A stretch of 38,278 nucleotides of DNA from an uncultured Planctomycetales bacterium (GCA_964483535.1 CAZABZ010000001.1:80284-118561), one strand, 5' to 3'; positions 508-22,823 are shown, numbered from the stretch's first letter. The notes: generated by a model from the letters alone, not told the origin. A program made the numbers and translations.

Positions 508-1422
508 TTAGCGACCGAGACTCTTAAGCGGATTGTTCTGGAAGAAGTCCAGGAAGACTGGTCCAGCAACTAAAATAGCAACCACTGGAAAGATAAAAAA
601 CAGCAGAGGTATCAACATCTTCAAGGGTGCCTTTAATGCCATTGCCTCACCTCTCCTGAAACGGGCATCCCTCATGTCTTCAGAAAGTATGTTCAAGGCA
701 TCAATAACAGAGGTCCCCATGCGGTCAGCCTGAATGAGGGTTCTGGAAAAGGTGGACAGATCCGGCAATTCATACTTTTTAGCCAAATCCCTCAACGCAT
801 CACGCCTGGATTTACCCACATTAATTTCCTGCATCATGTTCCTTAGCTCATCGATAACCACTGTGGGCATTGATTTTTCAACCACATATTTCAGCGCCAT
901 CATAAAATCCAAACCGGCATTAACGCAAAGCCCCAAAAGGTCCACGGTATCCGGTAAAAACCTTAAAATGTCTTCTTTGATCTTCTTAATCCTGGCCTTC
1001 AGCCAAAACTCAGGCAGCATGTACCCGAGAGCAGCCCCCATTAAGATCCCGAACATTAAAAAATCGCCATTACCATTAAATTTTAAAACCAACAACAAAA
1101 GGACCGCTATCAGGATCTCTTTGATTAAAAAGAATTCTTCGACGGTGATCCTTGATTTGCCCATCCTCAAATCCCTGTACATGCGCTGACCGGTTGGCGA
1201 AATAGCGAAAGGCCTGTTAAATAAGGCCAGTTTACGCGTTGTCGAGAATATAAACTCCAACGGCCCCTTTTTTTTACTCTCAACGCCGAGTTTAGGCAGC
1301 AAGCTATCCAGGGGATCGTCCATCTTCAATTGCAATTTAGGACGATTATCCAAACCCACAGGCAAAAATCCCAAAATCAGGGCAAATCCGGCAAAAAAGG
1401 CGAATAATAAAGGTAGTAACAT
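508..1422 (-). CDS. tadC: TadC-like Flp pilus assembly inner-membrane platform protein (T2SS-F family)
   Basis: 304-aa ORF with terminal TM segments flanking a soluble GspF-like domain. Starts 1 nt after the tadB stop, as the last gene of the pilus operon. Confidence 0.8.
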   Translation of the reverse strand: MLLPLLFAFFAGFALILGFLPVGLDNRPKLQLKMDDPLDSLLPKLGVESKKKGPLEFIFSTTRKLALFNRPFAISPTGQRMYRDLRMGKSRITVEEFFLIKEILIAVLLLLVLKFNGNGDFLMFGILMGAALGYMLPEFWLKARIKKIKEDILRFLPDTVDLLGLCVNAGLDFMMALKYVVEKSMPTVVIDELRNMMQEINVGKSRRDALRDLAKKYELPDLSTFSRTLIQADRMGTSVIDALNILSEDMRDARFRRGEAMALKAPLKMLIPLLFFIFPVVAILVAGPVFLDFFQNNPLKSLGR

Positions 1423-1423
1423 T

Positions 1424-2290
1424 TTATACGTCCTTAAACGTGGATATTTTCCAAATGCTTAGGGCTCCTAACACCCACAATACGATGCACAAGACCATTA
1501 GATTCTGCCCCCTGGGCGAATTAAACATGGTGTCAAAAAAATGAGGGTTTGTCCCCGATACGGTAAAAAAGAAAAACACCGGCAAGCTGGTCATGACAAC
1601 CGCCTGAATTTTTCCCTGCATCGTCAGGGTTTGAAGGTTTTTTTCTATCTTTTTTTGCTCGCGGGTGCTTTTGACGATACGCGCAAAAATAATCGGCAAA
1701 TTGCCTCCGGTATCGCGCGCCAGCAAAATGGCCGTTACCAACTGCTGCATGGCCGGGGAAGGCATGCGCCGATAAAGACGATTGAGCGATTCGTCTAAAG
1801 GCACTCCCATTTTGTTCTCTCCTAAGACCACCCCAAACTCACCCTTGGTCGGGTCCGGCATTTCATCTGCCACTGATTCAAAAGCCTGTACTAAGCTTAA
1901 TCCCCCGCGAAAAGAGCTGGACATGATCATCATCGCATCAATAAGCTGGTCATTAAATTTTTGCTTGCGAATCGTGACAAGACGACCGACATACACGCGC
2001 GGCAAAATATAACCAAAAACCACCCCGGCAATCAGCCCGATCAATTTTTGCCCTTCAGGAAAAATAAAAAAACCTGCTATGCCTAAGACAACCGGACCTA
2101 AAAGGACCAGCTGGTACATTTTCTTAAGTTCTTCTTCCTTCATGTACCGGTCAATCTTTCCGACGACGGCCTGCGCCCGGTCTTTGTTCATCTGACTGGA
2201 CCTGGCCACCAACGTCGGCACAAAGGTGACCCCTAAAAGAGTAACAGCAACAAACAATAAAAATAAGGAAAGTATAAGCATATGCCTCAT
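1424..2290 (-). CDS. tadB: TadB-like Flp pilus assembly inner-membrane platform protein (T2SS-F family)
   Basis: 288-aa ORF with the same TM / soluble-domain / TM layout as the TadC paralog and adjacent to it. The start codon is uncertain: no clear SD at 2290, and an alternative ATG lies 9 nt downstream. Confidence 0.8.
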   Translation of the reverse strand: MRHMLILSLFLLFVAVTLLGVTFVPTLVARSSQMNKDRAQAVVGKIDRYMKEEELKKMYQLVLLGPVVLGIAGFFIFPEGQKLIGLIAGVVFGYILPRVYVGRLVTIRKQKFNDQLIDAMMIMSSSFRGGLSLVQAFESVADEMPDPTKGEFGVVLGENKMGVPLDESLNRLYRRMPSPAMQQLVTAILLARDTGGNLPIIFARIVKSTREQKKIEKNLQTLTMQGKIQAVVMTSLPVFFFFTVSGTNPHFFDTMFNSPRGQNLMVLCIVLWVLGALSIWKISTFKDV

Positions 2291-2294
2291 TACG

Positions 2295-2645
2295 TCATTG
2301 CGACGTCTGATTATTCATCTGACCACAACTGCTTGTCTGGCACTGACTATTCATTATGCCCTCTTGACAGTCAGCGTTGCATTGTGAATTGTTAAAAGAC
2401 AGGAAGCAATTACGATCATACCACAGATTTGATTGCTCATCAAAAGCGCATTCAATAGTTTTTTGCGGATCATACTGCCGCCCAAAGGCAAAGCTTTGTC
2501 CTGATTGCCCCCAGAGGCCAAAAATCCCGCGCTGGATATAATTTCTCATTACCAAAAACGCTCCGATGATAATGACAAATAACACCGTGTATTCAACCAC
2601 AGAAAATGCTTTTTTATTTAAAATTTTATAGTCCGGAAACATCAT
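2295..2645 (-). CDS. Flp/TadE-type prepilin-like protein with a Cys-rich C-terminal region
   Basis: N-terminus NKKA/FSVVEYTVLFVIIIGAFLV fits a class III signal plus hydrophobic helix. The YIQRGI motif is shared with pilins P4, P7 and P8. I count 7 Cys in the C-terminal half. GGAGGA lies 8 nt upstream of the ATG. Overlaps the 3' end of the 1130-aa gene by 20 nt. Confidence 0.7.
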   Translation of the reverse strand: MMFPDYKILNKKAFSVVEYTVLFVIIIGAFLVMRNYIQRGIFGLWGQSGQSFAFGRQYDPQKTIECAFDEQSNLWYDRNCFLSFNNSQCNADCQEGIMNSQCQTSSCGQMNNQTSQ

Positions 2646-5600
2646 ACGTCAGGTCCTCCGGCTGCTTCTGGCAGTTAACAAATTTCAAAGAATAATTACT
2701 CTGATTATAAGTCTCGCCCGAAGCCTGAGAAGCGTCACTGCCAGCTATATATTCCGCACAAATATGGCTTTCCGGGGCATTATTCAACAAATTATTGGCC
2801 TGGGAAAGACATTTGCCGTAGCCTGGGGAAGGAGAGTTAATGTCCACCGTACCGCTAGTGCTACCAGGATTGTAGTTGTCATTTAACATAAAAGCATTGC
2901 CAAGTGCCGTCTGATCCTGTGTCGATATTCCAGCATATCTTAACCCTTGTACCGTTTGGGGCACAAGGCCAAACCCGATAGAACCGCCGCTTAAGCCTTT
3001 ACATGCTTGCATAAGCTCTTTTCCGGTAGTATTGGCAACGCTGCCTGCGGCAGGATTATGAAATAAAAATTGCCATAACGGATGTCCATTAGGGAAGAGG
3101 ACAGAATTATTGCTATGGTCCTCATCCCAACGCTTGACACTGACATACACAAGTCCATCGCGAGCTTGGAGGGTATAAGTACGAGCCATATCACATGTCA
3201 AAGAATACGTGACAAAGTCTCCAGTAATGACTACATAGTAAGTCCACCAATTACTACTGTTGCATCCTAGCGCCGTCTCCGTGTCAATCCACGGCAATAG
3301 AGACCCTATGCCTAAGGTGTTACTTCCGCCACGGCCCGGCGAATATGCCGTGACTTTAACAAGATGCGCGTATCCCTGCTGGCCATTAGGGTAGGTATTA
3401 TCAACCCATCCATAGATTACGGAATTTGGTAATTTTGCCGTCGGAGAAGGTTGATTATACGCGTAGGTCAGCTGGGCTGCCGGCCCGCCGGCTGAGCAGT
3501 CGGAACCAGAACAGGGTTTGAAAAAAGCACTCAGCGCGTTGTATCCTGATTGAAAAATACTTTGCATGGACTGGGCCCTAGTGTAAATATCCTGTAAAAA
3601 CCCGGATCGCAACGCGAACTTTGGAGCCTCGTCGGTAGCTAAAATATAGCTGTTCTGCACCCAATTCGCAAAACTGCTTGGCGCGGTAGCGGTAGGATCA
3701 CATGAAGATTTATCGCCTGGAGTGAAGGCAGGTGCTTGCCCCGCGAGAGAACGGCCCAAAACCGAAGGCGCGCACGAGGCAGGCAATGCGGAGCATGTTG
3801 TTGCCTCCTTCTTCAAGTCGACCAAGCACTGATTATAGTTGTTCGCCGGGACCGTGCCCGCATTATAATTCAGACAGGCAATAACAGAGGGCATGCTCCC
3901 CCAGGTTGCTCCGCCGTCATTACTATTTATATAGGTATTTTCAGTTGAGCCATTCTCACTTAAAAGTATCGCTTCCTGCGGAACGCACCAGGCACTGTTG
4001 CTCTCATAGCTTTTTGTATTCAACCAATTTGTAATCACCGTGTTCCAAGTGCTGAGATTTGTCACCAGCGGCGGCAAACGGCCGGTCGACGGATCAATCC
4101 AATCAGCCATCTGAGGATACCAGGTAGTAAATGTTGCGCTTAATGTTCCTACATCATTACTAAGGAAGTTATTTGAAAAATTAACAAAATCTGTCAAGGT
4201 GTGCATAGCGTAGTCCAACCCATCCAGGGTACTGGGCGGTTCAGTTAAAGGGGGAGAGGGCGCCGAAGAAGACGCAGTGGCGCTGCCAGTCAACTCACAA
4301 GTACCATCCTGAAAGGTCGAGGTTGCTCCATTATATGGCCAGGTCGTGGAGCACATCTGGTTGTCTCCTTGCAACCAAGAGCCGGAGCTGGCTTCTCCAA
4401 AGCTTGGATCAATAGCAGGATTTGACGATCCCACTATATCAATCGCCCCATTGACAACGGTGCTGGACGGAGTTGGCACGCCGTTAGTGACGCTGCCGGC
4501 AAGATAATTAACACAACAATCTTGGCCCTGACAACTATACGGCAAACTTAACTGGGCCAAATCTGTAAATCCCGTTGGAACTGTAAAAACCGGAATATTA
4601 ACTCCGTTGGTAGCTGTCGTTGCCGGGGCGCACCAATGGAGATCCGGAGAGTTTGCGACAGGAGGATTGGTTAGTGGATTAATGTTATTCACCTCCGGGC
4701 TATAAGCCTTCATCAGCCAGAAAAATGGAAATACTCCGTTGGGAAACTCCACAACAGGCGTCACTCCAGCGGGGGTTATCACATCGGGCTGTAAAGTAAA
4801 AGGCGGTGTCCCCATGGGCTGGTCACGGCCATACTGGGCTAAAAATGATACCCCTGCCGCATAGTTCTGAAAAGTAGGATCATAAAGAAGCGTGTACGGA
4901 TTTGTCGAGGCCCCGTATGCTCCATATGGATTATTTTGCGTGCATTGCACGGGTGCGCCGTTGTAGCTTGTGCCTTGATCACAACTAGAAGGCCGTACAG
5001 ACACATACTGTGTAGGGTGCATGGGATTGAACGTACAATTAGAAGACTGTGTAGACAAACCCGACATGGAGTGCGTGGAATTGAAAGTACCTTTGGTAGC
5101 GCTGGAAGCACAATACGCCGGATCCAGCACTTGCAGCGGCTGACAGCATGGGTCGCAATAAGGACTATAGGGATTTGAACTGGAGCACGCGTCATTTAAT
5201 TGGAAAACATTCGGTATCTTCACTTGACAGGCTGGATCTATAGGATCATTAATGCAAGTTTGTGCGCCTAAAGCGGCACAGACAGGGTTGAGCGTAACAG
5301 CGTTCTGATAACTTGCATAATCACTTTCATTTTGACCGCACGTTTCGCCATTCATTAATTCCCCCAATTGATTATAAAAGAACACCACCTGAGGGATAAG
5401 AGGTTTGTTTAACATTTTTAAACGGTCGGTATAAAATAACGCAAACCGGCCAACAGTGTCATTGGGGAAACCGTTTGTGCTTCCCAAAACACCATTGGCG
5501 TTAGAATCAAGATAATCCGTGATGTTAACTTGGTCCGTGACGCTGCCTTGAAGGGCCGCGGCGATGCCCCCTTCATAAAACTGCTGGGTGATAGGCTGGT

Positions 5601-6018
5601 TCTTCTGTAATTGATTCCATATCGATGTTATCCCCGGCTGAACCACGACTATTTGAAGGACTAAATTTGCAACAGCCGCCACAACCAGAAGCCACATCAC
5701 AGGCCCCATCGTCCCATAACTACAAATGGTTACAACAATCGCTACTATAATTGTAATAATAGCCACTATGAGCCCCACCCTGCCGGTATATTGATTAGTG
5801 CCCTGTAAATTTTCCTCCTTCATCATTTCACCATAACTGGCCGCATCCGAAGCCAAAAGCGAGGCGCTTTGATCGGCGGCTATAGTCAACAAGGCCTTTG
5901 TCTGGGCAACGCGACCCCAGTTTAAGGTGATGGCAAGAAAAATCAGCGCCGCCGCCGTCAATAAAATCAAAATCAAGGCAGTTTGGCCACGCGTGTCATT
6001 GTTTATTTTTTTAATCAT
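2626..6018 (-). CDS. Giant TadG-like protein (1130 aa): TadE/G-like N-terminus, an extra TM hairpin, and a long Cys/Ser/Thr/Asn/Pro-rich extracytoplasmic region
   Basis: N-terminus TRGQTALILILLTAAALIFLAITLNWGRVAQTKALLTIAADQSASLLASDAA matches the Tad_N (TadE/G-like) pattern. A second hydrophobic block of about 50 aa (GLIVAIITIIVAIVV...LVLQIVVVQPG) follows. I count about 33 Cys. No other domain recognised. The start overlaps the upstream gene by 4 nt (ATGA). Confidence 0.7.
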   Translation of the reverse strand: MIKKINNDTRGQTALILILLTAAALIFLAITLNWGRVAQTKALLTIAADQSASLLASDAASYGEMMKEENLQGTNQYTGRVGLIVAIITIIVAIVVTICSYGTMGPVMWLLVVAAVANLVLQIVVVQPGITSIWNQLQKNQPITQQFYEGGIAAALQGSVTDQVNITDYLDSNANGVLGSTNGFPNDTVGRFALFYTDRLKMLNKPLIPQVVFFYNQLGELMNGETCGQNESDYASYQNAVTLNPVCAALGAQTCINDPIDPACQVKIPNVFQLNDACSSSNPYSPYCDPCCQPLQVLDPAYCASSATKGTFNSTHSMSGLSTQSSNCTFNPMHPTQYVSVRPSSCDQGTSYNGAPVQCTQNNPYGAYGASTNPYTLLYDPTFQNYAAGVSFLAQYGRDQPMGTPPFTLQPDVITPAGVTPVVEFPNGVFPFFWLMKAYSPEVNNINPLTNPPVANSPDLHWCAPATTATNGVNIPVFTVPTGFTDLAQLSLPYSCQGQDCCVNYLAGSVTNGVPTPSSTVVNGAIDIVGSSNPAIDPSFGEASSGSWLQGDNQMCSTTWPYNGATSTFQDGTCELTGSATASSSAPSPPLTEPPSTLDGLDYAMHTLTDFVNFSNNFLSNDVGTLSATFTTWYPQMADWIDPSTGRLPPLVTNLSTWNTVITNWLNTKSYESNSAWCVPQEAILLSENGSTENTYINSNDGGATWGSMPSVIACLNYNAGTVPANNYNQCLVDLKKEATTCSALPASCAPSVLGRSLAGQAPAFTPGDKSSCDPTATAPSSFANWVQNSYILATDEAPKFALRSGFLQDIYTRAQSMQSIFQSGYNALSAFFKPCSGSDCSAGGPAAQLTYAYNQPSPTAKLPNSVIYGWVDNTYPNGQQGYAHLVKVTAYSPGRGGSNTLGIGSLLPWIDTETALGCNSSNWWTYYVVITGDFVTYSLTCDMARTYTLQARDGLVYVSVKRWDEDHSNNSVLFPNGHPLWQFLFHNPAAGSVANTTGKELMQACKGLSGGSIGFGLVPQTVQGLRYAGISTQDQTALGNAFMLNDNYNPGSTSGTVDINSPSPGYGKCLSQANNLLNNAPESHICAEYIAGSDASQASGETYNQSNYSLKFVNCQKQPEDLTYDVSGL

Positions 6019-6266
6019 GGAATTGTATTGTTCCCATTAGTTATGCTGCCGTGATACACCGCGGCCATCGGCTGAGCAATGCCGACGTCAGAATTTAGTT
6101 GTGACGCCGGATCGGTGCCCACCAGTGTTGTCATTGAATTGTCCTGCGCCCAACGCCGCTCGGCCAAATCCATGCCTGTCCAACGGAAGACCCTCACCAT
6201 GCCGTAAACTAAAAACATAATGACAACCATCGCAAAGGTGAATTCTATGGTTGATTGGGCTTTCAT
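6015..6266 (-). CDS. TadE-like pseudopilin (83 aa)
   Basis: N-terminus MKA/QSTIEFTFAMVVIMFLVYGMV fits the TadE-type motif. Translationally coupled to both neighbours. Confidence 0.7.
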   Translation of the reverse strand: MKAQSTIEFTFAMVVIMFLVYGMVRVFRWTGMDLAERRWAQDNSMTTLVGTDPASQLNSDVGIAQPMAAVYHGSITNGNNTIP

Positions 6267-8138
6267 TTATTTAATCCTCAATTGTCCTGATGTATCAGTC
6301 ATCCAAAAATGGCCGCGCCGATCTTGAAGACGGCTGCGGACAAATAACATATTGCTATTCGCATAAAAACATGTCGATTTAATATTCTGCTGACTGCTAA
6401 AACAGTTATCATTGGAGCCGGGAGGTATACAGACTTCCACCGGATTAGGCGTTACCCCGTCATTGGCAACAGTAGTCAGACGGTTCCCATTTTGATCGCA
6501 AAAGCGTCCGGTGTTATTGCTCAATTGAATAGTGCGCTGTATTAAGTCTATTGTATCGCGCTTATTAGCGCTGCGCACAAACTGGTCGGTTTCAGGATTG
6601 TATAATTTCCCTTCCTTAATCTGTAAATAAGTGCCGTCCTGGGTGAAGGTGAAAATTTGCGAGTCTGGCTGTAACCCAGGCTTGGGGCCGCAAGAGGTGA
6701 ACTGGTCCCAAATTCCATCAATATCCCCGCCCTGAGGGTCCTCATAAGACACCGTTGGTGTCCCGTCTGAATTCAGGCTGATTGCGTAAATAGTTACTCC
6801 CTCTTCCGCTATCCTGCCGTCTATATCATACTGAGGATACTGGTTGTTGCTGGCATTCAATCCGATTACGCTATCGATTGTAGCCCCTCCTGCCGAGGGA
6901 CTAAACAACCCAAACACGCTGCTAGAAGCCGCGGTGGTTGAAGGGACCCTTACCGCGGTGGCCGCCCATTGCCAGGCTACGTAACAACGCATGTTCGCTG
7001 CCGTAGTAGCTGAACATGCTGTCACCCCCCCTGTCTCCGCCATCGCAGGAAATTGCTGCTCTACCGACGTGTAATCCCCCAAGCGCTGAAGGTCATATTG
7101 CATGTCCCCACTGCTGTTGGTATACGGATTGCCGTTTGCATCCAACACCGTCAAAGTCGAACATAACGCGTTATACGAAACGCTATCCGACGAGCTACTC
7201 GTGGTGGACGAACAGGCCGGTGGGGTCGGTAAAAAGAAGGGCGCCGTCTGTCCTCCGTTGACCGCTCGTGTATAAAATAATTTATAAGAGGTCATGTTGC
7301 TCTGCAAAATACTTTGTATCTGATTTAATGCCGTCTGCCCCGCACTTGGAAACTTGTTTTCAAACCACGTGACAAACGAAGTTGGCAACGTCGACGAATT
7401 AACAGTGCCCTGGGTATTAGACCCCAAAGCCAGACTAATCACCCCTTCATTGGCCAATTCATTAAAAATGGCATTGCCATTGGCTGCCATTGTTGTGTCT
7501 GTCTTCGTCTTGCTGATATTGGAATAATTATTTGTCGTGTCGAATGTGAATGGTACTACATAATCAAACAGGCTTGCATTAACTGTCGGGAGCGCCCATT
7601 CCCTTTTATTGCGATTGCTTTGGTTCTTTAGGCACTGCTGTTGCTGCGGGGTGGAGGCGTTACAATCCGACGAGCATTGCGTAGATTTTGTAATTGTTTT
7701 ATTCGTAACATAGGACGCGGTGGTAAAAGGAAAATACTGGCCGTTGATATAAACGTCCATGATCGGCAAATTCGAAGCCACCTCGCCAACATCCAAAGGA
7801 TAGAGCTCCTCATACGAAAAGGTCCCTGAACCCTGGGCAATAAAAGGATTACGGTCTAAAGCCCCATACTTATTAAAGTCCGGGGAAAGCCGGTCTTCCA
7901 CAAAAAGAATTGAAGCGCTGGTGCGGGACGTATTGCCGGCCTTGGAGCTATTCCATGAAGCCAGCATGGCCATGCGCATGGCTTTAAAATTTTGATTTTG
8001 CGTATAACTATTGCCCACGGCGGAACGCACAATCGTCCCCAGAATAAAAACAAGGATAGCTCCGAAGACGGCAAGCTCGATGGCAGCCTGCCCTGCCTTG
8101 GCGATGACCTGTGTTTTTTTATTTTCCATCTTGAGCAT
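6267..8138 (-). CDS. Large TadE-like protein (623 aa) with a Ser/Thr/Asn-rich extracytoplasmic region
   Basis: N-terminus KAG/QAAIELAVFGAILVFILGTIV fits the TadE_N pattern. I count about 12 Cys. The remainder is not recognisable. Its start overlaps the upstream pilin stop by 1 nt (TAATG). Confidence 0.65.
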   Translation of the reverse strand: MLKMENKKTQVIAKAGQAAIELAVFGAILVFILGTIVRSAVGNSYTQNQNFKAMRMAMLASWNSSKAGNTSRTSASILFVEDRLSPDFNKYGALDRNPFIAQGSGTFSYEELYPLDVGEVASNLPIMDVYINGQYFPFTTASYVTNKTITKSTQCSSDCNASTPQQQQCLKNQSNRNKREWALPTVNASLFDYVVPFTFDTTNNYSNISKTKTDTTMAANGNAIFNELANEGVISLALGSNTQGTVNSSTLPTSFVTWFENKFPSAGQTALNQIQSILQSNMTSYKLFYTRAVNGGQTAPFFLPTPPACSSTTSSSSDSVSYNALCSTLTVLDANGNPYTNSSGDMQYDLQRLGDYTSVEQQFPAMAETGGVTACSATTAANMRCYVAWQWAATAVRVPSTTAASSSVFGLFSPSAGGATIDSVIGLNASNNQYPQYDIDGRIAEEGVTIYAISLNSDGTPTVSYEDPQGGDIDGIWDQFTSCGPKPGLQPDSQIFTFTQDGTYLQIKEGKLYNPETDQFVRSANKRDTIDLIQRTIQLSNNTGRFCDQNGNRLTTVANDGVTPNPVEVCIPPGSNDNCFSSQQNIKSTCFYANSNMLFVRSRLQDRRGHFWMTDTSGQLRIK

Positions 8139-8467
8139 TAATTCCCTACCTGTGTACTCCCTGTCTTCGTTTCCAAAGAATTGGACGCGTCAACCCGATT
8201 TGTCCATTGGCCCTGTTCCAACTGACCTGTACTGTTATTAGATCCATTTAAGACAGTCACAATGGATTGTGCATTAACCTGCGTCGCGTAGACGATATTG
8301 GAGTTAACGGACTGGGGGTCATACTGGTCGCCAAAATCATCTGCCGCTGATTTCCACCGGCCCTGAATGCCTCTCTTGATATAATCCTTCATGGCAATCA
8401 TAACTCCCAGGATAATAATCACGATCACCGTGTATTCTAAAATTGTTTGTCCTTTATGGTTGCGCAT
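8138..8467 (-). CDS. Flp-type prepilin P8 (type B, 109 aa)
   Basis: HKG/QTILEYTVIVIIILGVMIA, then YIKRGIQGRWKSAADDFGDQYDP. This is a close paralog of P4. Confidence 0.8.
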   Translation of the reverse strand: MRNHKGQTILEYTVIVIIILGVMIAMKDYIKRGIQGRWKSAADDFGDQYDPQSVNSNIVYATQVNAQSIVTVLNGSNNSTGQLEQGQWTNRVDASNSLETKTGSTQVGN

Positions 8468-14824: not shown

Positions 14825-14844
14825 TGATCTTGCTTGTCCGCCGA

Positions 14845-16848: not shown

Positions 16849-16880
16849 TTCTTCTCTCCTGAAGGGGGCCGTTTTCTTCT

Positions 16881-16927
16881 TATAAACAAAACACCCTCAA
16901 TCATCTACTGACGATTGAGGGTGTTTT
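16881..16927 (-). terminator. Intrinsic terminator acting as the riboswitch expression platform
   Basis: The minus-strand RNA folds as AAAACACCCUCAAUC-(10 nt)-GAUUGAGGGUGUUUU followed by GUUUAU. It lies between the aptamer and the AGGAGAG SD of the receptor gene. Confidence 0.7.
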
Positions 16928-16990
16928 CCCGCAACATGTCTCAATATATACGCTTCCTGACTTGTTCTCACGCAGGCATTCAGCTTTTAA

Positions 16991-17075
16991 ATACCGTTAG
17001 GTGTTCGGACTTCCCCCAAGGGAGTTACCGCAGCGGGACTGTTCTCGATTCACACGAGATTTCCCTAACTGGTAT
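16991..17075 (-). promoter_or_regulatory. Cobalamin riboswitch aptamer (compact form with a minimal P6 region)
   Basis: The minus strand reads UUAGGGAAAUCUCGUGUGAAUCGAGAACAGUCCCGCUGCGGUAAC...GGGGGAAGUCCGAACACCUAACGG. This parallels the E. coli btuB leader core (UAGGGAAUCCAGUGCGAAUCUGGAGCUGACGCGCAGCGGUAAGG ... GAAGAC-CUGCCGG B12 box). P1 forms from AUACCAGUUAGG and CCUAACGGUAU. Confidence 0.8.
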
Positions 17076-17083
17076 GTGTTTTT

Positions 17084-17623
17084 TTAAAAAAATCGCGCCA
17101 AAACTGTACCTTGGCTGCGTTTTAATAGCCATTCATAACCAGCGTAAAAGACCAAACTATACACCATAGTGCTGACTAATGTGCTTCTAAAAAAAGGAAT
17201 TGCCAAAATATAACATTGCCGCAACCCATCCATCGTATGCGGATATAAAGTCAGCCACGCACCGCCATTGGTTACAATGAAAAAAATCACGGCCGAGGCA
17301 AAGCTGGAGCCTAACACAGTTAGAAAATTCTTTCTCTTTTTGAGCCAAAGCCCAAAAATACTGATCAACACAATACTTCCCCACGTAAAGAACATCATAC
17401 TATGAAAACCGATAATAAAATCACTGATAACCATCAATGCCAACGGCACAAGCACGGCTTGACGGCCTTTAAGGTACATGCCACCGAATAAAGCCAGACT
17501 TAATACCGGCGTAAAATTAAAGGTATGCACTATAACGCGGGAGAGAATGCCAAAACTAATAATGATTAAGGCCAACATAAATTTTATTATAAATGAATCG
17601 TACGTGAAGTCAACCGCGAACAA
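17084..17623 (-). CDS. Small polytopic membrane protein (179 aa), family uncertain; possibly vitamin-transporter-like
   Basis: About 5-6 hydrophobic helices. The NFTPVLSLALFGG motif recalls an uncharacterised bacterial membrane family, recalled from memory and unverified. It lacks the prepilin-peptidase motifs (no GxGDxK). It starts 7 nt after the DUF192 gene and ends 8 nt before the riboswitch P1. Confidence 0.4.
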   Translation of the reverse strand: MFAVDFTYDSFIIKFMLALIIISFGILSRVIVHTFNFTPVLSLALFGGMYLKGRQAVLVPLALMVISDFIIGFHSMMFFTWGSIVLISIFGLWLKKRKNFLTVLGSSFASAVIFFIVTNGGAWLTLYPHTMDGLRQCYILAIPFFRSTLVSTMVYSLVFYAGYEWLLKRSQGTVLARFF

Positions 17624-17630
17624 GACGTGT

Positions 17631-17981
17631 TTATATAGAAGGGTGCTGAATTTGTACCTGGTCCCCTATTTGTGTTTTGGAGGCGGCAATGGTGCTTGAA
17701 GGTACTTCAATGGCATAGGAGGCTTTAAAAAATACCGGAGACAGACAAAAAGGTTTAATTCTCTCACAAAGGCCAATCACTTTATTGTGGCGGTCACAAA
17801 AAATCACATCAATGGAAAATTTCATAAAAAACATATGGATGGATTGGCAGTGCGTTATGATTAAGGCCTCGCCAAGAGGCAAGTCCTTGACCCCAAGCAA
17901 CCCCTTCATTCTAGCCCAAGGATTTTGGGCAATTGCAACATTGGAAGCAATAGTGGTGTCGCGGGTAAGATTTAAAATCAT
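17631..17981 (-). CDS. DUF192 (COG1430) family protein
   Basis: 116 aa with ARMKGLLG, LIITHCQSIHMFFMKFSIDVIF and SYAIEVP segments, typical of DUF192. Confidence 0.65.
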   Translation of the reverse strand: MILNLTRDTTIASNVAIAQNPWARMKGLLGVKDLPLGEALIITHCQSIHMFFMKFSIDVIFCDRHNKVIGLCERIKPFCLSPVFFKASYAIEVPSSTIAASKTQIGDQVQIQHPSI

Positions 17982-17999: not shown

Positions 18000-20162
18000 T
18001 TATGCGCTGACGTGCGTTTCAAAAATAGTTTTGCTAAGCGGTATGCCACGGGTGGCAAAATCCTCAAAACACTTAGGAATATACCCGGTGGCCGCGTATT
18101 CTCCCATGATCTGCCCTTCAGCATTCACGCCCTTATGAACAAACGTAAACACGTCCTTGACCTCAGGCAAGTTGTCGACCATCCGGCCCGTTAGCTCGGA
18201 GATCGCGGTGATCTTGCGTGACCCATCGGAAAAACGGTTGATTTGAACAATAATATTAATCGCTGAAGCGGCCATTTCATAAATGGCGCGCAGCGGCAAC
18301 TCAATCCCTGAAAGTAAAACCATCGACGACATACGTGAAAGCGTGTCCCGTGGCGTGTTGGCATGCAAGGTGGTCAAGGAGCCGTCATGGCCTGTATTCA
18401 TCGCCTGCAACATATCCAAAACTTCCGGTCCGCGGCACTCGCCGATGATTATCCGGTCCGGGCGCATACGCAAGGTATTGATAAAAAGGTCCCTGATCGT
18501 CACCTTGCCGCGGCCTTCAATGTTAGGCGGACGGCTTTCCAGCCTGGCCCAATGCGTTTTACTCAACCGCAATTCCGCGGCGTCTTCAATGGTAATAATG
18601 CGCTCATTATCCGGAATAAAATGGGAAATGATATTAAGCAGGGTGGTTTTCCCAGCGCCCGTGCCCCCGGAGACAATGATGTTCTTTCGGCCGATGACAC
18701 AGGCATTTAAAAAATCAGCCATGGGCTGTGAGATGCTTTTAAAACGGGTGAGTAAATCTTCCATGGTGTAACGGTCTTGAGAAAATTTGCGCACCGTAAT
18801 CATGGGGCCGTTAAGGGACAACGGCGGGATGATCGCGTTGATGCGCGACCCGTCGGAAAGACGCGCGTCTACCATGGGCGTAGATTCATCCACGCGACGG
18901 CCTAAAGGGGCAATGATCCGGTCAATCGTCGCGCGCAGCTGGTCGTTGGAAATAAATCTTTTATTGGTAAAAAGCAATTTCCCGTTTTTTTCAACAAAAA
19001 TTTCATCTTTATTGTTGACCAGGATGTCTGTGATGCTATCATCGGCCAACAAATCTTCCAGGGGGCCAAGCCCCAAGGCCTCATTGACGATTTCCTTGAC
19101 TAAACGGGCCCTCTCCTCATGGCTTGAAAGAAACGTTCCCGATGTTTCCGCCAAAAGCTCCGTGACCACTTTTTGGGCGGCTTTGCGCAGATTGGCCGCC
19201 TGAGAGGGGTCGTTTAAAACGTCCTGCGACATCTTTTGTAAATTCATGCGCTCAACCAAAAGGGCATGCACGGCCCGTTTTACTTTAATGACCTCATCTT
19301 CTTCTTTTTGAAAATCAATCGCTCCTTCAGTAACGTTTGGCGTAATGCCGAATTTCTCCCAGAACGCGTCACTTTTTTTAGAAGTGTTGTCGCTGGCGCG
19401 CACTTTAATGACGTCACTGCCCCGCACGTAAAGGCTTTCATCATTCAAACTATCGGCGATCGTAAAAAAGCTCTCTGATACCTTTGCTTTGGGACTGTCT
19501 ATGACACAGGGCACGCCGCGATTTAAAGCGCCCCCCACTGTCTTGCCGTCCGAAGGGATCAAAGCAAAAACTTCACAGGCCAGGGCATTCTTGACTTCCT
19601 GCCAGGCAACGCCGCCACGGCTTTCAGCCCGGTTTAAAATCAAACGGACCATCTTTAAAGGAAAATGCAGGCTCGAAAGAATTTCCATGCTGGTTTTTAC
19701 CTGATATACCGCCAGGATGTCAGGAGTGCTTACCAATAAAATCAGGTTGGAGGCGTCCAGGATGCTGATGAAAATCTCGCTAAAGGAGCTCCCTCCGTCG
19801 ACGATGATATATTCATATTGGCTGGATGCTTTTTTAAAAAACAAACGTAAATTATCCGAGGTGACGTGCCCGATTTGCCGCGGGGATGTAACGCCAGGTA
19901 AAAAATGCAGTCCGCTGCTGTGGGTGACGACGTATTTTTTAATCGCGTCGGGTGAATTTTCCATGTCCGCCAAAATATCGACTAAGCAATGCGTTGGCGG
20001 CAAATTAAGCATCCTCGCCATGTCCTGGCTGGCCTGCAAGTTTAAATCCACAATCAGTACCCGCTTGCCCCTCAAGGCTAATGCGCAGGCAATATTAACC
20101 CCAATAAAGGTCTTGCCCACCCCGCCTTTATTGCTGAATACTGTAATGACTTTAGCTAACAT
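18000..20162 (-). CDS. Fused CpaE/TadZ-like (ParA/MinD-type) ATPase and CpaF/TadA secretion ATPase
   Basis: The N-terminus carries a deviant Walker A (SNKGGVGKT). The C-terminal half carries T2SS-E/VirB11-type motifs (GGTGAGKTTLLN Walker A, IITIEDAAEL, RPDRIIIGECRG, TGHDGSLTTLHAN). Confidence 0.85.
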   Translation of the reverse strand: MLAKVITVFSNKGGVGKTFIGVNIACALALRGKRVLIVDLNLQASQDMARMLNLPPTHCLVDILADMENSPDAIKKYVVTHSSGLHFLPGVTSPRQIGHVTSDNLRLFFKKASSQYEYIIVDGGSSFSEIFISILDASNLILLVSTPDILAVYQVKTSMEILSSLHFPLKMVRLILNRAESRGGVAWQEVKNALACEVFALIPSDGKTVGGALNRGVPCVIDSPKAKVSESFFTIADSLNDESLYVRGSDVIKVRASDNTSKKSDAFWEKFGITPNVTEGAIDFQKEEDEVIKVKRAVHALLVERMNLQKMSQDVLNDPSQAANLRKAAQKVVTELLAETSGTFLSSHEERARLVKEIVNEALGLGPLEDLLADDSITDILVNNKDEIFVEKNGKLLFTNKRFISNDQLRATIDRIIAPLGRRVDESTPMVDARLSDGSRINAIIPPLSLNGPMITVRKFSQDRYTMEDLLTRFKSISQPMADFLNACVIGRKNIIVSGGTGAGKTTLLNIISHFIPDNERIITIEDAAELRLSKTHWARLESRPPNIEGRGKVTIRDLFINTLRMRPDRIIIGECRGPEVLDMLQAMNTGHDGSLTTLHANTPRDTLSRMSSMVLLSGIELPLRAIYEMAASAINIIVQINRFSDGSRKITAISELTGRMVDNLPEVKDVFTFVHKGVNAEGQIMGEYAATGYIPKCFEDFATRGIPLSKTIFETHVSA

Positions 20163-20228: not shown

Positions 20229-21980
20229 TTAATACGAAGCAATGACTTTCTCCGCAGGTGCTTGGGCGCTCCCCGCAATGAGATTGTTGTAAACGATGGG
20301 AATCGTAAAAACAATGCCTTCCTGGTCCATCCCCGTCGTAAAAGCATCAAAAGGAGCGGCTGTTTTGGCGGCTTGCATAGCGTCTTGGTCTAAAATATAA
20401 TTCCCTGAGGATTCCATCACCTCTGCCGAATCCAATGACCCGTTTTTAAGTATGCGCAGTTTCAATTTAACAGTGCCTGCCAAGGCAACGCCACCTGCCC
20501 CTACCGCGTTGGGATAGGAAATCGCTTTGGAGATTTTTTCCTGGACCATGCGCGCGTAAGCCGTCATCACCGGAAGATATTCCGGTTGAACTTTGTTGAC
20601 ATCAACGGAGGGTCCCTTTGCAACCGGCCAAGACGAAGACAGAGGCTCATGTTCATACTTCGCGCTAATTTCTTTCCAAGAATCACGCTCCAAGGGTGTC
20701 GGCATCACCAATTGATTGTCCGCGAATTTCTTATCTGTAAGCACCGTCGGTGTCAAAATAATCACCATTTCTGTATTGGTATCCGGGGCGGGTGTTTGGC
20801 GGTTTCTAAATAAAGCCCCCACGATAGGTATTTTAGATAAAATCGGGATCCCTGTTACTGTCTCGTTGTCGGTATACTTAATCAATCCTGCCAAGGCGAT
20901 GGTCTGTTTATTGTCCATAAACAAATCTGTCGAAGCCGTGCGCGTAATAAAAGCCGTCCCATTTGCTGTTGACGAATTCGACGCGTCAATGTCGCGAATG
21001 TCCACATTGAGCAATATATCGATTTTCCCTTCGCGGATGGTGGGTGTTACCGTTACATTAACACCATATTGTGTATACGTGGTGCTTTGGGTCGATGAAG
21101 TTCCCGTGGCATTGGTAGTCGTGTTGAGAACGGGTATTTCCCCTCCCACCAGAAAGCTTGCTTGCTTGCCGTTGAGGGCCACTAAGCGAGGCTTGGAAAT
21201 AAGCCGGGCCTTGCCTTCCTGAATAAAGGCATTAATCGTGGCCTGTAATGGGGTCCGGGCAAAACCGCCTACCTTAAAAAAGTCCTTGAACTTGCCGTTC
21301 CCGTTAGTGGAAGGAAGATTTTCAGTTTCAGTCGTCAGTCCGGGAGTGGTGCTGGTACTACCGCTGCCCGTAGAAGCAGTGACTGAGCTCCCCCACAAGA
21401 TCCCTAAATCTTTCTCAAAGGATGTGCTGATTTCAACAATCTGCATATCCACTTGAATCAAATCTTCGTTCTTTTCTTCTTTGACCAAGTTCAACAAATT
21501 ATCGTTATACGGTTGCAAAATATTCTCCAGACGACTCTTGTCCTCTTTGGACACTGCCCCCGAAACCACCACCTTGCCTTCATTCAGATTTTCCTCCAAA
21601 GAGACGTCCGTAATATTCGCTTCATTCAAAAGTTTTTGCACACGGGCCTTCACGACGCTTAAATCTTCACTGACCACGCGCACTTTAACGCTGCGCTTGC
21701 CGCCGGCGTCCCATAAAAATAAAACAGTCTCTCCGGATTTCTTGGCTAAAACAGAAACTTTATCGCTTTGGGCATCTGAAATATCCGCTATGTCCGGGTT
21801 GGTCACTGAAACGCGGGTCAAACTGTTGACCGGAACCGTTTCAATATCACCGGTGACCATGTTAATGACATCGCCCGCCTGCGATGTGTTTTCATCGGCA
21901 AAGGGGCGCGGCATTAAAAACATGGTCAATCCAAAACCTAATGCGATAATAAAAATTTTATTTAAAAAAGCACGTTTCAT
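20229..21980 (-). CDS. CpaC/RcpA-type secretin with an appended TonB C-terminal-like domain
   Basis: Signal peptide, a pilus N-terminal region (TRVSVTNPDIADIS...VLAKKSGETVLFLWD), and a secretin core (LISKPRLVALNGKQASFLVGGEIPV ... IPILSKIPIVGALFRN). The last 110 aa or so fit the TonB_C pattern (ISYPNAV...LAGTVKLKLRILKNGSLDSAEVMESSGNYILDQDAMQAAKTAAPFDAF...FTIPIVY). Confidence 0.8.
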   Translation of the reverse strand: MKRAFLNKIFIIALGFGLTMFLMPRPFADENTSQAGDVINMVTGDIETVPVNSLTRVSVTNPDIADISDAQSDKVSVLAKKSGETVLFLWDAGGKRSVKVRVVSEDLSVVKARVQKLLNEANITDVSLEENLNEGKVVVSGAVSKEDKSRLENILQPYNDNLLNLVKEEKNEDLIQVDMQIVEISTSFEKDLGILWGSSVTASTGSGSTSTTPGLTTETENLPSTNGNGKFKDFFKVGGFARTPLQATINAFIQEGKARLISKPRLVALNGKQASFLVGGEIPVLNTTTNATGTSSTQSTTYTQYGVNVTVTPTIREGKIDILLNVDIRDIDASNSSTANGTAFITRTASTDLFMDNKQTIALAGLIKYTDNETVTGIPILSKIPIVGALFRNRQTPAPDTNTEMVIILTPTVLTDKKFADNQLVMPTPLERDSWKEISAKYEHEPLSSSWPVAKGPSVDVNKVQPEYLPVMTAYARMVQEKISKAISYPNAVGAGGVALAGTVKLKLRILKNGSLDSAEVMESSGNYILDQDAMQAAKTAAPFDAFTTGMDQEGIVFTIPIVYNNLIAGSAQAPAEKVIASY

Positions 21981-21983
21981 TAA

Positions 21984-22823
21984 TTAGAGTTCCTTGCCGC
22001 CTCTGAAGATTTGAATGCTCGGTTTATTCCCCACGGGCTTGCTTGCGGCTGCCCCGTCTGGATTTTGAATATCAAGCCCCTGATTGGCCAAAACATAGTC
22101 TGCCAAAGTTTTCCACGTGTCTGCTTTGACCTTTTGGTGCCCGCTTTCATCCGGAGAACGCAACGCCAATTCCAAGATCCCATTCTTATTAGCAAAGGCC
22201 AAAAGCCCTGCTTCTTGCGGGTCAACCGCAACAGTGATTTTTAAAAAGCTCTCCGCCTGCTGCTCATCATAAGCGCCGGGGTCGTCTTCATTGGTATTAA
22301 TGGCCAAAACCTGCAGGCCCTGAAAAATCATGGCAGTCACGGTTTTCTTATCTGCGGACTGGAAAGGAACATTAAGTTCAGCTATCACATCCACAAAATC
22401 TCCGGGATTGAGCAATCCGCCTACGGCGGCTAATGAATCGATCTTAACCGTTATCGCGCGTTTACCCACCGGTGTTTTTAACGCCAATGAAGGTTTGCGG
22501 ACTTTTTGTACTTGAGCGGCTTGCTGCATCCGGGCCGCTTCCTGTTGGCTCTCCTTCAAGGCGGCCATTTGCTTTTGCATAGCCTCAGCCTGTTGGCTTT
22601 TAACGCGTTCTAATTCCTGCGCCAAAGCGGCCATTTGCTGGTCGCTCCTCTGCTGGATCTGGGCGGCCATCTCCTTTTGCTTGACATCGTACTGTTCCGC
22701 TAAAGACGAGGTCTGTCCTTCGATGCTGCTTTTGACATAATTACTGGTCAAAATCACCGCGATAATCCCGGCAGCTACCGCGCCGACAATAATCAAAAGT
22801 TGTTTTTTGTTTTCAAGGGGCAA
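21984..22823 (-). CDS. CpaB/RcpC-like pilus assembly protein with a Gln/Ala/Met-rich coiled-coil segment; TTG start
   Basis: N-terminal TM helix, a coiled-coil-like stretch of about 70 aa, then the RcpC-type segment GKRAITVKIDSLAAVGGLLNPGDFVDVIAEL. AGGAGGG lies 5 nt upstream of the TTG start. Confidence 0.7.
   Translation of the reverse strand: MPLENKKQLLIIVGAVAAGIIAVILTSNYVKSSIEGQTSSLAEQYDVKQKEMAAQIQQRSDQQMAALAQELERVKSQQAEAMQKQMAALKESQQEAARMQQAAQVQKVRKPSLALKTPVGKRAITVKIDSLAAVGGLLNPGDFVDVIAELNVPFQSADKKTVTAMIFQGLQVLAINTNEDDPGAYDEQQAESFLKITVAVDPQEAGLLAFANKNGILELALRSPDESGHQKVKADTWKTLADYVLANQGLDIQNPDGAAASKPVGNKPSIQIFRGGKEL

Follow-up and report, generated by a model that had tools for sequence, protein, structure and literature searches.

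Gene content and genomic setting of the locus

The window, that is, the whole 38,278-nucleotide stretch of DNA analysed here, carries what its gene content suggests is a many-pilin Tad (tight-adherence) pilus gene cluster of the candidate phylum Omnitrophota, a predicted bacterial-type machine and not an archaeal hybrid. The listed pilus genes all lie on the minus strand, at 508-22823, and a conserved PPIase gene heads the locus. The envelope and motor parts, together with the genes that accompany them, are as follows.

22891-23901, minus strand: periplasmic PPIase (SurA_N + Rotamase_2), conserved first gene of the locus (Pfam Rotamase_2, E=1e-18)
21984-22823, minus strand: RcpC/CpaB (Pfam RcpC, 84 bits; NCBIfam TIGR03177, 97.3 bits, cut-off 71)
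20229-21980, minus strand: RcpA/CpaC-type secretin with a C-terminal TonB_C domain at aa 500-565 (Pfam Secretin 127, T2SS-T3SS_pil_N 38, TonB_C 41 bits)
18000-20162, minus strand: single 720-aa ORF joining a TadZ/CpaE-like MinD/ParA ATPase at aa 1-250 to a TadA/CpaF motor ATPase at aa 320-705 (Pfam AAA_31/ParA and T2SSE)
17631-17981, minus strand: DUF192 protein, right after the ATPase gene (Pfam DUF192, 64 bits)
11049-12101, minus strand: conserved HTH protein, 350 aa (weak Pfam HTH_Tnp_Tc3_2/HTH_32 matches)
1424-2290, minus strand: TadB-like platform protein (Pfam T2SSF, 63.4 bits)
508-1422, minus strand: TadC-like platform protein (Pfam T2SSF, 59.8 bits)
1-507, minus strand: intergenic region toward a giant gene (21,986-aa gene call just outside the window)

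Of the hallmarks of a Tad system, a CpaF-type ATPase, a MinD-like TadZ/CpaE ATPase, separate TadB and TadC proteins, and a secretin with CpaB were found. The first-pass annotation had listed CpaB, a secretin, CpaE, CpaF, TadB and TadC as present, and Pfam and NCBIfam matches bear out these parts, except that CpaE and CpaF prove to be one fused 720-aa ORF. AAA_31, ParA and CbiA domains at aa 1-240 identify the first part of this ORF as TadZ/CpaE-like; it is without the N-terminal receiver-like domain of classical TadZ, and the motor part scores 197 bits against T2SSE in Pfam. Fused MinD::CpaF homologues of 715-727 aa fall into more than 100 clusters, the named ones being Omnitrophica/Omnitrophota, and the homologues at 64-94% identity carry the same labels. 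Identity of the TadB-like protein to TadB from many bacterial phyla is 29-36%, and that of the TadC-like protein to its counterparts in Chloroflexota, Bacillota and Gammaproteobacteria is 32-47%; tblastn found TadB matches in 78 loci and TadC matches in 72. Among the loci compared, the secretin-TonB_C fusion occurs in Omnitrophota only.

The window was taken from an Omnitrophota contig of 115 kb, in which the gene following the window's TadC end encodes 21,986 aa. The start codon of this giant gene lies 26 nt beyond window position 1 and 534 nt after TadC, its frame is open from L001:11449 on across all 3,155 codons of sequence checked, and its product has a Peptidase_C39 domain at aa 199-265. 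A repeated order, gyrB-gyrA-...-PPIase-CpaB-secretin(TonB_C)-MinD::CpaF-DUF192-HTH-pilins-large pilins-TadB-TadC, is shared with the relatives' loci L003, L004, L093, L094, L095, L096 and P0112, some of which do not reach both ends. The pilus locus is followed by a 21,745-aa gene in L096 and probably by a giant gene in L095. The Omnitrophota locus has the replication-origin genes on one side and a giant gene on the other.

The DUF192 and HTH genes belong to the pilus locus as conserved members. The position of the DUF192 gene is kept in all Omnitrophota relatives, and 32 Tad loci from many other phyla have DUF192 as well. Orthologues of the HTH gene follow DUF192 in L003, L004, L093 and L094, the loci in which the PPIase gene also has an equal position. 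The promoter and palindrome of the HTH gene lie at 12099-12154; L094 has the same TTGACGC...TATAAT promoter and ATGTCCAnnnTGGACAT palindrome, as does L004 apart from a single mismatch.

The prepilin array

Twelve ORFs have a prepilin-type N-terminus, composed of a short basic leader, a [G/A]/Q site and a hydrophobic stretch. The array comprises nine small prepilins and minor pilins of 623, 83 and 1130 aa.

10674-10829, minus strand: Flp-like prepilin, 51 aa, NRNA/QNLIEY (Flp_Fap 20.9 bits, below cut-off; orthologues in L003, L004)
10398-10646, minus strand: Flp-like prepilin, 82 aa, KRG/QSTVEY (Flp_Fap 24.0, Class_IIIsignal 22.2 bits, both below cut-off)
9989-10351, minus strand: long prepilin type A, 120 aa, RKA/QNTAEY (N-terminal motif; orthologues in L003, L004)
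9626-9958, minus strand: long prepilin type B, 110 aa, RRG/QSTLEY (N-terminal motif, paralogue comparison)
9401-9607, minus strand: Flp-like prepilin, 68 aa, HKG/QSTVEY, paralogue of the 82-aa one (Class_IIIsignal 22.1, Flp_Fap 18.7 bits, below cut-off)
8869-9327, minus strand: long prepilin type A, 152 aa, NKG/QAILSEY, Glu at +6 (N-terminal motif, paralogue comparison)
8508-8867, minus strand: long prepilin type B, 119 aa, RRG/QSILEY (N-terminal motif; gene call in L001)
8138-8467, minus strand: long prepilin type B, 109 aa, HKG/QTILEY (N-terminal motif, paralogue comparison)
6267-8138, minus strand: large minor pilin, 623 aa, KAG/QAAIEL (N-terminal motif)
6015-6266, minus strand: TadE-like minor pilin, 83 aa, MKA/QSTIEF (Pfam TadE 16 bits, cut-off 22.9; orthologues in L003, L004)
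2626-6018, minus strand: TadG-like giant minor pilin, 1130 aa, TRG/QTALILILL...NWGRVAQTK...AADQSA (N-terminal pattern by eye; no Pfam match)
2295-2645, minus strand: long prepilin type B, 116 aa, KKA/FSVVEY (paralogue of the 109-aa pilin, 54 bits)

A motif detector run over six frames of the 38 kb recovered 10 of the 12 prepilins and nothing else, and 0-0.02 are expected by chance from shuffled sequence; the earlier count of twelve prepilin-like genes stands. The description of their motif was likewise accurate, since Gln occupies +1 in 11 of the 12 and Glu occupies +5 in 10; the exceptions include the 1130-aa protein, with Ile at +5, and the 116-aa protein, with Phe at +1 (its orthologue in L003 reads KTA/ASIVEY). 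The G/XXXXEY motif is found in nine. The residue at -1, said earlier to alternate between Gly and Ala, does not do so: it is Gly in eight and Ala in four, and relatives have position-specific orthologues between which Gly and Ala are swapped at this site. The 116-aa protein, previously grouped with TadE/G-like proteins, is instead a paralogue of the 109-aa Flp-like pilin. At the 3' end of the 152-aa pilin gene there is a perfect 57-nt tandem duplication (8882-8995).

The Pfam Flp_Fap gathering score (32.2) was reached by no pilin, those after the best one scoring 13.7-20.9 bits or giving no match, and the Class_IIIsignal gathering score (23.7) was missed narrowly by two, with no match for the other ten; the 83-aa protein gave the sub-threshold TadE match listed above.

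The two largest proteins belong to families of their own. The 623-aa pilin has 107 homologues, the named ones being Omnitrophica/Omnitrophota except for one labelled 'Bathyarchaeia', which is probably a mis-binned contig; the protein gave no Pfam domain, and its AF2 model (pLDDT 63) gave no PDB fold match. The 1130-aa pilin has 55 homologues of 629-1896 aa, the named ones being Omnitrophica, in which the N-terminal half is conserved, the C-terminal part is variable, and Big_9 or PKD Ig domains occur in some. It too gave no PDB fold match, the models of both large minor pilins being of medium to low confidence. The pair has a putative adhesin role, suggested by where the genes lie, by the prepilin-type N-terminus and by Ig domains in some homologues. 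The earlier reading as a Tad/Flp-type system is supported, and the pilin set is unusually large and conserved.

A private insertion

The run of pilus genes is interrupted by a block found only in the window genome, with the following contents.

12155-17638, no strand assigned: 5.48 kb insertion private to the window genome (Rfam, Pfam; junctions mapped against L094)
17084-17623: DUF6580 membrane protein (likely true start about 17578)
16979-17088: cobalamin riboswitch (Rfam 36.6 bits, gathering score 31.5)
14845-16848: TonB-dependent receptor
12863-14779: membrane-anchored B12-binding radical SAM protein
12248-12859, plus strand: 203-aa ORF, opposite to the pilus genes

The first-pass annotation had described a cobalamin-uptake module of about 5 kb splitting the locus. 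A riboswitch and a TonB-dependent receptor do lie between the two blocks, and the insertion also holds the DUF6580, radical SAM and 203-aa ORFs. Its GC content is 0.37-0.40, as against 0.46-0.49 in the flanks, and the 5.48 kb block was found in no related locus, including those of relatives with 90-93% identical ATPases, which are contiguous there. The insertion is recent and unrelated, has its own promoter and is not part of the pilus machine, and the split does not support the reading as a deep-branching or hybrid variant.

The missing prepilin peptidase

As had been noted before, the window has no TadV/CpaA-type peptidase gene: Pfam on 30 ORFs and an A24 HMM run on all stop-to-stop ORFs of at least 90 aa gave no A24 peptidase. 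Nor was there an A24 match in the contig flanks (L001, L002) or in the Omnitrophota loci L003, L004, L013, L014, L016, L093 and L094. A peptidase gene apart from the locus is ordinary for Tad: only 39 of about 85 other Tad loci have an A24 peptidase within 10 kb, and the published Tad model permits an unlinked one (PMC6668835).

Comparison with known Tad systems

The locus type has already been published in outline (West-Roberts 2023; Seymour 2023), and the window is one more genome with this known Omnitrophota arrangement. [quoted passage not shown] Those of Seymour 2023 (PMC10066038) describe the Tad complex of Velamenicoccus archaeovorus LiM as complete and expressed, near genome position 12-30 kb. 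Phylum, components and the origin-side position upstream of a giant gene are all alike, as far as these passages go. The window brings together a secretin, a GspE-family ATPase, two GspF-family (TadB-TadC) proteins, RcpC and a Rotamase_2 PPIase with numerous small genes of the class III signal peptide-like kind, directly upstream of the giant gene and with the same layout in L096; the pilins of L094 carry precomputed weak Class_IIIsignal flags. It differs from the published locus in its private 5.5 kb cobalamin/radical SAM insertion. The same passages make no mention of the fused MinD::CpaF, the TonB_C tail, DUF192 or the HTH gene, nor of Gly/Ala at -1, pilin paralogue families in a set order or the pair of large minor-pilin families.

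Canonical Tad loci (Aggregatibacter tad, Caulobacter cpa, Pseudomonas rcp/tad) share with the window the CpaF motor, the TadB and TadC pair, CpaB, a CpaC-type secretin that has the N-terminal pilus domain, a TadZ-like ATPase, pilins with a G/XXXXEY-type motif and candidate TadE/TadG-like minor pilins, and the window CpaF shows 46-54% identity to CpaF proteins annotated in Tad loci on plasmids. By contrast, TadZ is fused to TadA in the window, TadV is absent from the locus, and the pilin block lies between the ATPase and TadB/TadC. Omnitrophota loci have 9-12 pilin genes, where canonical loci have 1-3 and none of 85 other loci has more than 6, and their leaders are short and basic with Gly/Ala at -1, whereas canonical ones are long and often have Asp/Glu before a near-invariant Gly. 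Among the loci compared, the PPIase, the HTH gene and the secretin TonB_C were found only in Omnitrophota.

The Tad loci of Bdellovibrionota, Elusimicrobiota and WOR-3 are closer in some respects, having a single-ORF MinD::CpaF fusion of 670-740 aa and G/QST(V/I)EY-type pilins. Unlike the window, they have 0-6 detected prepilins and are without the TonB_C tail, PPIase, HTH and 623/1130-aa families, and they are neighbours, not the sister group, of the Omnitrophota clade in the NJ tree. In the passages of Seymour 2023 concerned (PMC10066038), Omnitrophota TadB and TadC cluster with those of Bdellovibrionales.

Four traits are lineage-specific in these comparisons: the fixed array of 9-12 pilins, Ala/Gly at -1 with a basic -2 (a pattern that archaeal Epd pilins have too), the two large Omnitrophota-only minor pilins and the TonB_C secretin. 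This kind of locus seems to have a central part in the contact that ultra-small, probably predatory or parasitic Omnitrophota make with other cells. Handles for work on the machine include the fused TadZ-TadA motor, which Bdellovibrio-like predators also have, the predicted cleavage site at which Gly and Ala are interchangeable and the ordered pilin families, as well as the two large variable minor pilins, the TonB_C-tailed secretin and the widespread DUF192 neighbour.

Proposed mechanism and alternative functions

Quite probably, the region is the Omnitrophota version of the bacterial Tad (type IVc) filament machine, with a mechanism taken from homologous systems. Prepilins would be cut after the [K/R][G/A] site, and the A24-type peptidase that does so would have its gene at another place in the genome. 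A CpaF hexamer on the TadB/TadC platform would then polymerise them into a filament, which would pass through the CpaB conduit and then the secretin. The two large Omnitrophota-specific minor pilins may prime or cap the fibre and bear variable adhesive domains, and the filament could attach to host or prey cells jointly with the neighbouring giant surface protein.

It is unlikely, but conceivable, that the locus is a type II-like secretion or display apparatus, in which a short multi-pilin pseudopilus pushes the giant protein or cooperating enzymes through the secretin and no adhesive pilus is made. Such a role would fit the strict position of the locus upstream of the giant gene (in the window, in L096, probably in L095 and across the phylum), a large heterogeneous pilin set with big minor pilins, as in T2SS pseudopili, and the periplasmic chaperone-like PPIase kept at the locus head. 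Co-location alone, however, does not demonstrate a substrate relationship. The ATPase is CpaF rather than GspE (only 35-42 bits with models of GspE, whose cut-offs are above 600), and no GspC, GspL or GspM domain was found by Pfam in the ORFs scanned. Moreover, the giant protein begins with a Peptidase_C39 region anchored in the membrane and is reported to have many transmembrane segments, which suits Sec or ABC-type handling better than a route through the secretin.

A further, rather doubtful possibility is that Omnitrophota pilins keep an ancestral Epd-type signal ([K/R][G/A]/Q...E), are matured by an unlinked EppA-like or non-TadV peptidase, and form a heteropolymeric filament out of the 9-12 arrayed pilins and both large minor pilins, which cooperates with the adjacent ~22,000-aa protein by presenting or delivering it to prey. 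If true, this would be a predation organelle distinct from adhesive Tad pili.

Archaeal or bacterial affinity

The first-pass annotation had suggested a deep-branching or archaeal/bacterial hybrid Tad variant retaining the archaeal class III signal system. Part of the observation holds, as the signal motif does resemble the archaeal one. Epd (EppA-dependent) pilins EpdA-E of Methanococcus maripaludis are cut at RA/Q or KG/Q with Glu at +5, the [K/R][G/A]/Q site and Glu listed in Table 1 of PMC4371748 and present in window pilins, and 14 pilin substrates are predicted per genome there. Two window pilins come just short of the Class_IIIsignal cut-off, as given above. In other bacterial Tad loci the -1 residue is seldom Ala (3/106), but in Omnitrophota it often is (15/28), and no Omnitrophota locus examined has a TadV gene. 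An EppA-type peptidase requires Gln at +1. In addition, the ancestry of all Tad systems is traced to an Epd-like system of archaea (PMC6668835).

The motif is not discriminating, however, because most bacterial Flp-like ORFs, across phyla, have Gln+1/Glu+5: 56 of 106 such ORFs from 85 non-Omnitrophota Tad loci carry both, true Pfam Flp_Fap members being among them. The machine itself is of ordinary bacterial type in its ATPase, CpaB, secretin and TadB/TadC, the secretin and CpaB being bacterial outer-membrane additions that set it apart from M. maripaludis Epd. Against PDB, the ATPase domain matches Caulobacter CpaF at 383.7 bits (E=1e-113) and archaeal GspE2 and FlaI at only 118 and 117 bits, making it far nearer bacterial CpaF than the archaeal ATPases of solved structure. 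CpaF proteins of more than 10 bacterial phyla share 49-59% identity with it, and its best 80 genome matches (49-67% identity) are all bacterial and include no archaeon. In an NJ tree of CpaF that contains no archaeal Epd ATPases and is without bootstrap support, the ATPase is nested inside the bacterial radiation and the Omnitrophota clade is not basal. By the standards that the annotation had set for itself, namely where the ATPase falls and how common Gln+1/Glu+5 is among bacterial pilins, the hybrid origin is largely refuted; it is highly improbable, and the picture of Tad evolution is unchanged by the locus. Even the near-match to Class_IIIsignal is equalled elsewhere, with 21.6 bits for a pilin from the non-Omnitrophota bacterial locus L029.

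Organization and genomic setting

The region is a further example of the Omnitrophota Tad-like locus preceding giant genes, a locus type already described by West-Roberts et al. 2023 (10.1101/2023.11.21.568195). Every gene of the locus lies on the minus strand, with transcription running from 23901 to 508.

Genes of the Tad-like locus in order of transcription (window coordinates)
from 23901, minus: periplasmic PPIase (SurA_N and Rotamase_2)
after the PPIase, minus: RcpC/CpaB (TIGR03177, 97 bits; cut-off 71)
after CpaB, C-terminal end at 20229, minus: secretin with pilus-type N-terminal domain and C-terminal TonB_C domain
18000-20162, minus: MinD/ParA-type ATPase (TadZ/CpaE role) fused to the CpaF motor, one 720-aa ORF
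17631-17981, minus: DUF192 protein, after the fused ATPase
between the DUF192 and HTH genes: block of unrelated genes, 5.5 kb
after the block, minus: 350-aa protein, weakly matched to HTH at its N-terminus
after the HTH gene, minus: eight small prepilin genes
next, minus: prepilin-like proteins of 623, 83, 1130 (2626-6018) and 116 aa, in that order
last, ending at 508, minus: TadB and TadC, two T2SSF platform proteins

Pfam and NCBIfam searches recovered the CpaB, secretin, TadB and TadC components recognized in the first-pass annotation. The CpaE and CpaF that it listed are likewise present as functions, with the amendment that one fused ORF encodes both. The same order of gyrB/gyrA, pilins and TadB/TadC occurs in the loci of six relatives with DNA at hand (L003, L004, L093, L094, L095 and L096) and in the P0112 locus, known without its DNA, as far as each extends.

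The origin region at 26494-38278 carries a tRNA gene, gyrA, gyrB, a DciA-like gene, dnaN and dnaA on the minus strand and yidC, jag and parA on the plus strand. The sign of the GC skew flips at about 33-35 kb, and thus the locus adjoins the replication origin. According to Seymour et al. 2023 (PMC10066038), V. archaeovorus has a complete and expressed Tad complex at 12-30 kb of its genome, whose TadB and TadC cluster with their Bdellovibrionales counterparts. The full Omnitrophota gene order was also seen on a contig labelled 'uncultured Planctomycetales' (L016, CAYZPQ010000129.1), where CpaF is 83% identical to that of the window; this contig is probably mis-binned Omnitrophota.

Affinities of the fused ATPase

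The locus had at first been read as a possible hybrid or deep-branching Tad variant. Against Caulobacter CpaF structures its ATPase domain reaches 384 bits, versus 118 bits for archaeal GspE2 and 117 for FlaI. The domain is 46-54% identical to annotated plasmid CpaF of Proteobacteria and Actinobacteria. Scanning 185,579 species genomes gave 49-59% identity to CpaF from more than 10 bacterial phyla, and no archaeal entry stood among the best 80 of 564 confirmed matches. In a neighbor-joining tree rooted on VirB11, built without bootstrap support and without archaeal Epd sequences, the window protein belongs to an Omnitrophota clade that is nested among the bacterial sequences, neighbored by Myxococcota, gammaproteobacterial FHA-CpaF, Bdellovibrionota and Elusimicrobiota groups. 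Given these scores and this nested position, the hybrid or deep-branching interpretation is not supported by the sequences compared.

Homologs of the fused ATPase form more than 100 clusters (715-727 aa, 64-94% identity), and all named ones are Candidatus Omnitrophica/Omnitrophota. The MinD::CpaF fusion also occurs, in ORFs of 670-740 aa, in Elusimicrobiales, WOR-3, several Bdellovibrionota and some MAGs. Among the comparison loci, single-ORF MinD/ParA::CpaF fusions were seen in L015, L017, L018, L023, L025, L027, L028, L029 and L065. Longer CpaF ORFs of 535-579 aa in Myxococcota, Acidithiobacillus and Alcaligenaceae bear another N-terminal extension, which by eye looks FHA-like.

The prepilins and their signal motif

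All twelve prepilins open with a 3-16-residue leader in which Lys, Arg or Asn is frequent, followed by the predicted cleavage residue and a hydrophobic stretch. The residue at -1 is Gly in eight and Ala in four. As first noted, nearly all carry Gln at +1 (11 of 12) and Glu at +5 (10 of 12); of the two exceptions at +5, one places its Glu at +6 and the other, the TadG-like 1130-aa protein, carries Ile. A detector that combined the pattern [GAS]-x4-E-[aromatic or aliphatic] with 16 hydrophobic residues and, upstream, a start followed by a basic leader recovered 10 of the 12 from six frames of the 38 kb, with no other match, while shuffled windows (n=200) gave a mean of 0-0.02 matches. No window pilin reached the Pfam gathering score for Flp_Fap (32.2; best 24.0) or the cut-off for Class_IIIsignal (23.7; best 22.1-22.2).

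All-against-all comparison placed the small prepilins in three groups: short Flp-like (51 aa; 82 and 68 aa), long type A (120 and 152 aa) and long type B (110, 109, 119 and 116 aa). Since the 116-aa protein groups with type B, it is a pilin paralogue rather than a TadE/G protein; the count of twelve stands, and the proposed division into eight Flp-type and four TadE/G-like proteins shifts by this one. The gene for the 152-aa pilin contains a perfect 57-nt tandem duplication (8882-8995, 2.0 copies, 100% identical) that lengthens the C-terminus by 19 residues, and relative L094 holds three copies of an 89-aa pilin. The pilin array appears to change through local duplication.

The Gln+1/Glu+5 pattern had also been listed as a departure from textbook Tad loci. 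The unchanged detector found 106 prepilin-like ORFs in 85 Tad loci outside the Omnitrophota, of which the genome scan supplied 78 and plasmids 7, with Gln at +1 in 56 and Ala in 26, and with Gly (101), Ala (3) or Ser (2) at -1. With the predicted cleavage site written as a slash, at least one G/Qxxx-E pilin occurs in 30 of the 56 such loci with any detector match. Examples include GQGLAEYAL in Chloroflexota, GQGMVEYGL in Bacillota, GQDLVEYAL in Acidobacteriota and GQSTVEYII in Bdellovibrionota, and two non-Omnitrophota pilins of this type are true Pfam Flp_Fap members (46.2 and 38.5 bits). G/A, G/V or G/I is confined to textbook proteobacterial and actinobacterial loci. Judged from this majority elsewhere, Gln+1/Glu+5 is the commonest bacterial state and does not set this locus apart. 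A common bacterial motif fits the published derivation of Tad as a whole from an Epd-like archaeal system (PMC6668835).

Three traits do distinguish the lineage: Ala at -1 in 15 of 28 pilins from relatives, with Gly/Ala swaps between orthologues; a basic residue at -2 in 22 of 28; and 9-12 pilins per Omnitrophota locus versus at most six in the other Tad loci examined. In all three they resemble the Epd pilins of M. maripaludis, which are cut at RA/Q or KG/Q and number 14 predicted substrates (PMC4371748).

Prepilin peptidase

The reported absence of a TadV/CpaA-type peptidase gene from the window was borne out. Pfam scans of the window's main ORFs gave no A24 peptidase. An iterated HMM that started from four annotated TadV/CpaA proteins likewise found none in the window, the contig flanks or the related Omnitrophota loci examined. 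The HMM placed a peptidase within 10 kb of CpaF in just 39 of about 85 other loci, so an unlinked peptidase is common, and the published Tad model permits one (PMC6668835). That the Omnitrophota locus consistently lacks A24 looks like a trait of the lineage.

Besides TadB and TadC, no polytopic membrane protein is conserved in the locus. DUF192 and the other genes of the locus were dismissed as a hidden peptidase; DUF192 is a small soluble domain that stands alongside A24 genes in 7 other loci. C39 enzymes cleave after Gly-Gly-type leaders, and the Peptidase_C39 domain of the neighboring giant protein was rejected as the processing enzyme because the prepilin leaders end in Lys/Arg-Gly or Lys/Arg-Ala. 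Among the rows listed in the KEGG tables of Seymour 2023 (PMC10066038), one genome has CpaB, CpaC and CpaF without K02278/K02654 and another has CpaF with K02654 (PilD), too little to conclude on peptidase type.

The inserted block

The cobalamin module that splits the locus is real, as first described, and is not a feature of its design. In relatives with 90-93% identical ATPases the locus is contiguous, the HTH gene directly following DUF192. Alignment to L094 sets the insertion junctions at 17639 and 12154; the inserted genes are absent from every other locus compared. GC is lower within the block, which also carries a promoter-like site of its own. By these alignments the split is a recent private insertion. 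A search for direct or inverted repeats at its edges found none above chance, and hence no mobile-element signature.

Content of the inserted block
DUF6580 membrane protein
cobalamin riboswitch ahead of a TonB-dependent receptor
12863-14779: B12-binding radical SAM protein with a long membrane domain
small ORF in reverse orientation

The radical SAM protein (638 aa), downstream of the riboswitch and receptor, combines a polytopic N-terminal membrane region of about 270 aa with B12-binding and radical SAM domains. A literature search on DUF6580 returned nothing relevant.

The giant gene and the large minor pilins

A gene of 21,986 codons begins 534 nt after TadC, 26 nt past window position 1, and an exact TadC match places it with the window on one 115-kb metagenome contig. 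In the contig flank it occupies L001:11449-20915 (minus strand), as far as L001 reaches. The first 3,155 residues include a Peptidase_C39 domain (aa 199-265, 30.3 bits; cut-off 22), and the N-terminal region contains a membrane helix. Relatives have a 21,745-aa gene (L096) or one of at least 2,715 aa (L095) in the same place. In the close relative L095, TadC and the large gene are kept apart by two genes, a small ORF and one for a PemK-family toxin (16462-17027).

Members of the 1130-aa family number 55 and range from 629 to 1896 aa, with a conserved N-terminal half and a variable C-terminal part, which in some contains Ig-type domains; the 623-aa family has 107 members. All named members of both are Omnitrophica/Omnitrophota, save P0278 of the 623-aa family, labelled 'Candidatus Bathyarchaeia archaeon' and probably from a mis-binned Omnitrophota contig. 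AlphaFold2 models from alignments of 39 (1130-aa) and 42 (623-aa) sequences had pLDDT of 57.7 and 63.0, and Foldseek found no PDB match at E <= 0.001 for either. The best matches of the 1130-aa protein were the ClyA-family alpha-pore-forming toxins SmhB, MakE and AhlB (E 0.6-3, probability <0.1), mentioned because the organism is a presumed predator; being non-significant, they are too weak to support a fold assignment. From their position, prepilin N-termini and modularity, we infer that both proteins are tip or priming subunits with adhesive domains.

From homology and context, the most likely function of the machine is the assembly of a multi-pilin filament for host or prey contact, alongside the giant protein. 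Secretion of the giant protein is a less likely role. The first-pass observation of the locus was largely correct.

Conserved accessory features

A DUF192 gene adjoins Tad genes in 32 loci examined, 28 of them beyond the Omnitrophota group to which the window belongs (e.g., L022:13210-13542, L047:13354-13689 and L060:13180-13521). Together the 32 span Chloroflexota, Acidobacteriota, Bacillota, Gammaproteobacteria, Myxococcota and Omnitrophota. The usual place of the gene is right after TadC or CpaF, and no literature tying DUF192 to Tad pili was found. The TonB_C domain at the end of the secretin scores 41 bits (20229-20600, aa 460-583). Every Omnitrophota relative shares this fusion, and the other secretin-bearing Tad loci sampled lack it.

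In the spacer that separates TadC from the giant gene, a perfect 15-nt inverted repeat at 251-282 (CGAAGGATCTTAAGA / TCTTAAGATCCTTCG) sits inside a longer imperfect palindrome; it is a possible terminator or repeat element. Ahead of the HTH gene, a promoter-like site, TTGACGC-N16/17-TATAAT, is conserved in the window (12099-12154), L094 (12500-12555) and L004 (12815-12870). Next comes the palindrome ATGTCCAnnnTGGACAT, which abuts the HTH start codon and may be an operator for autoregulation. Window and L094 have it in perfect form, L004 with one mismatch.
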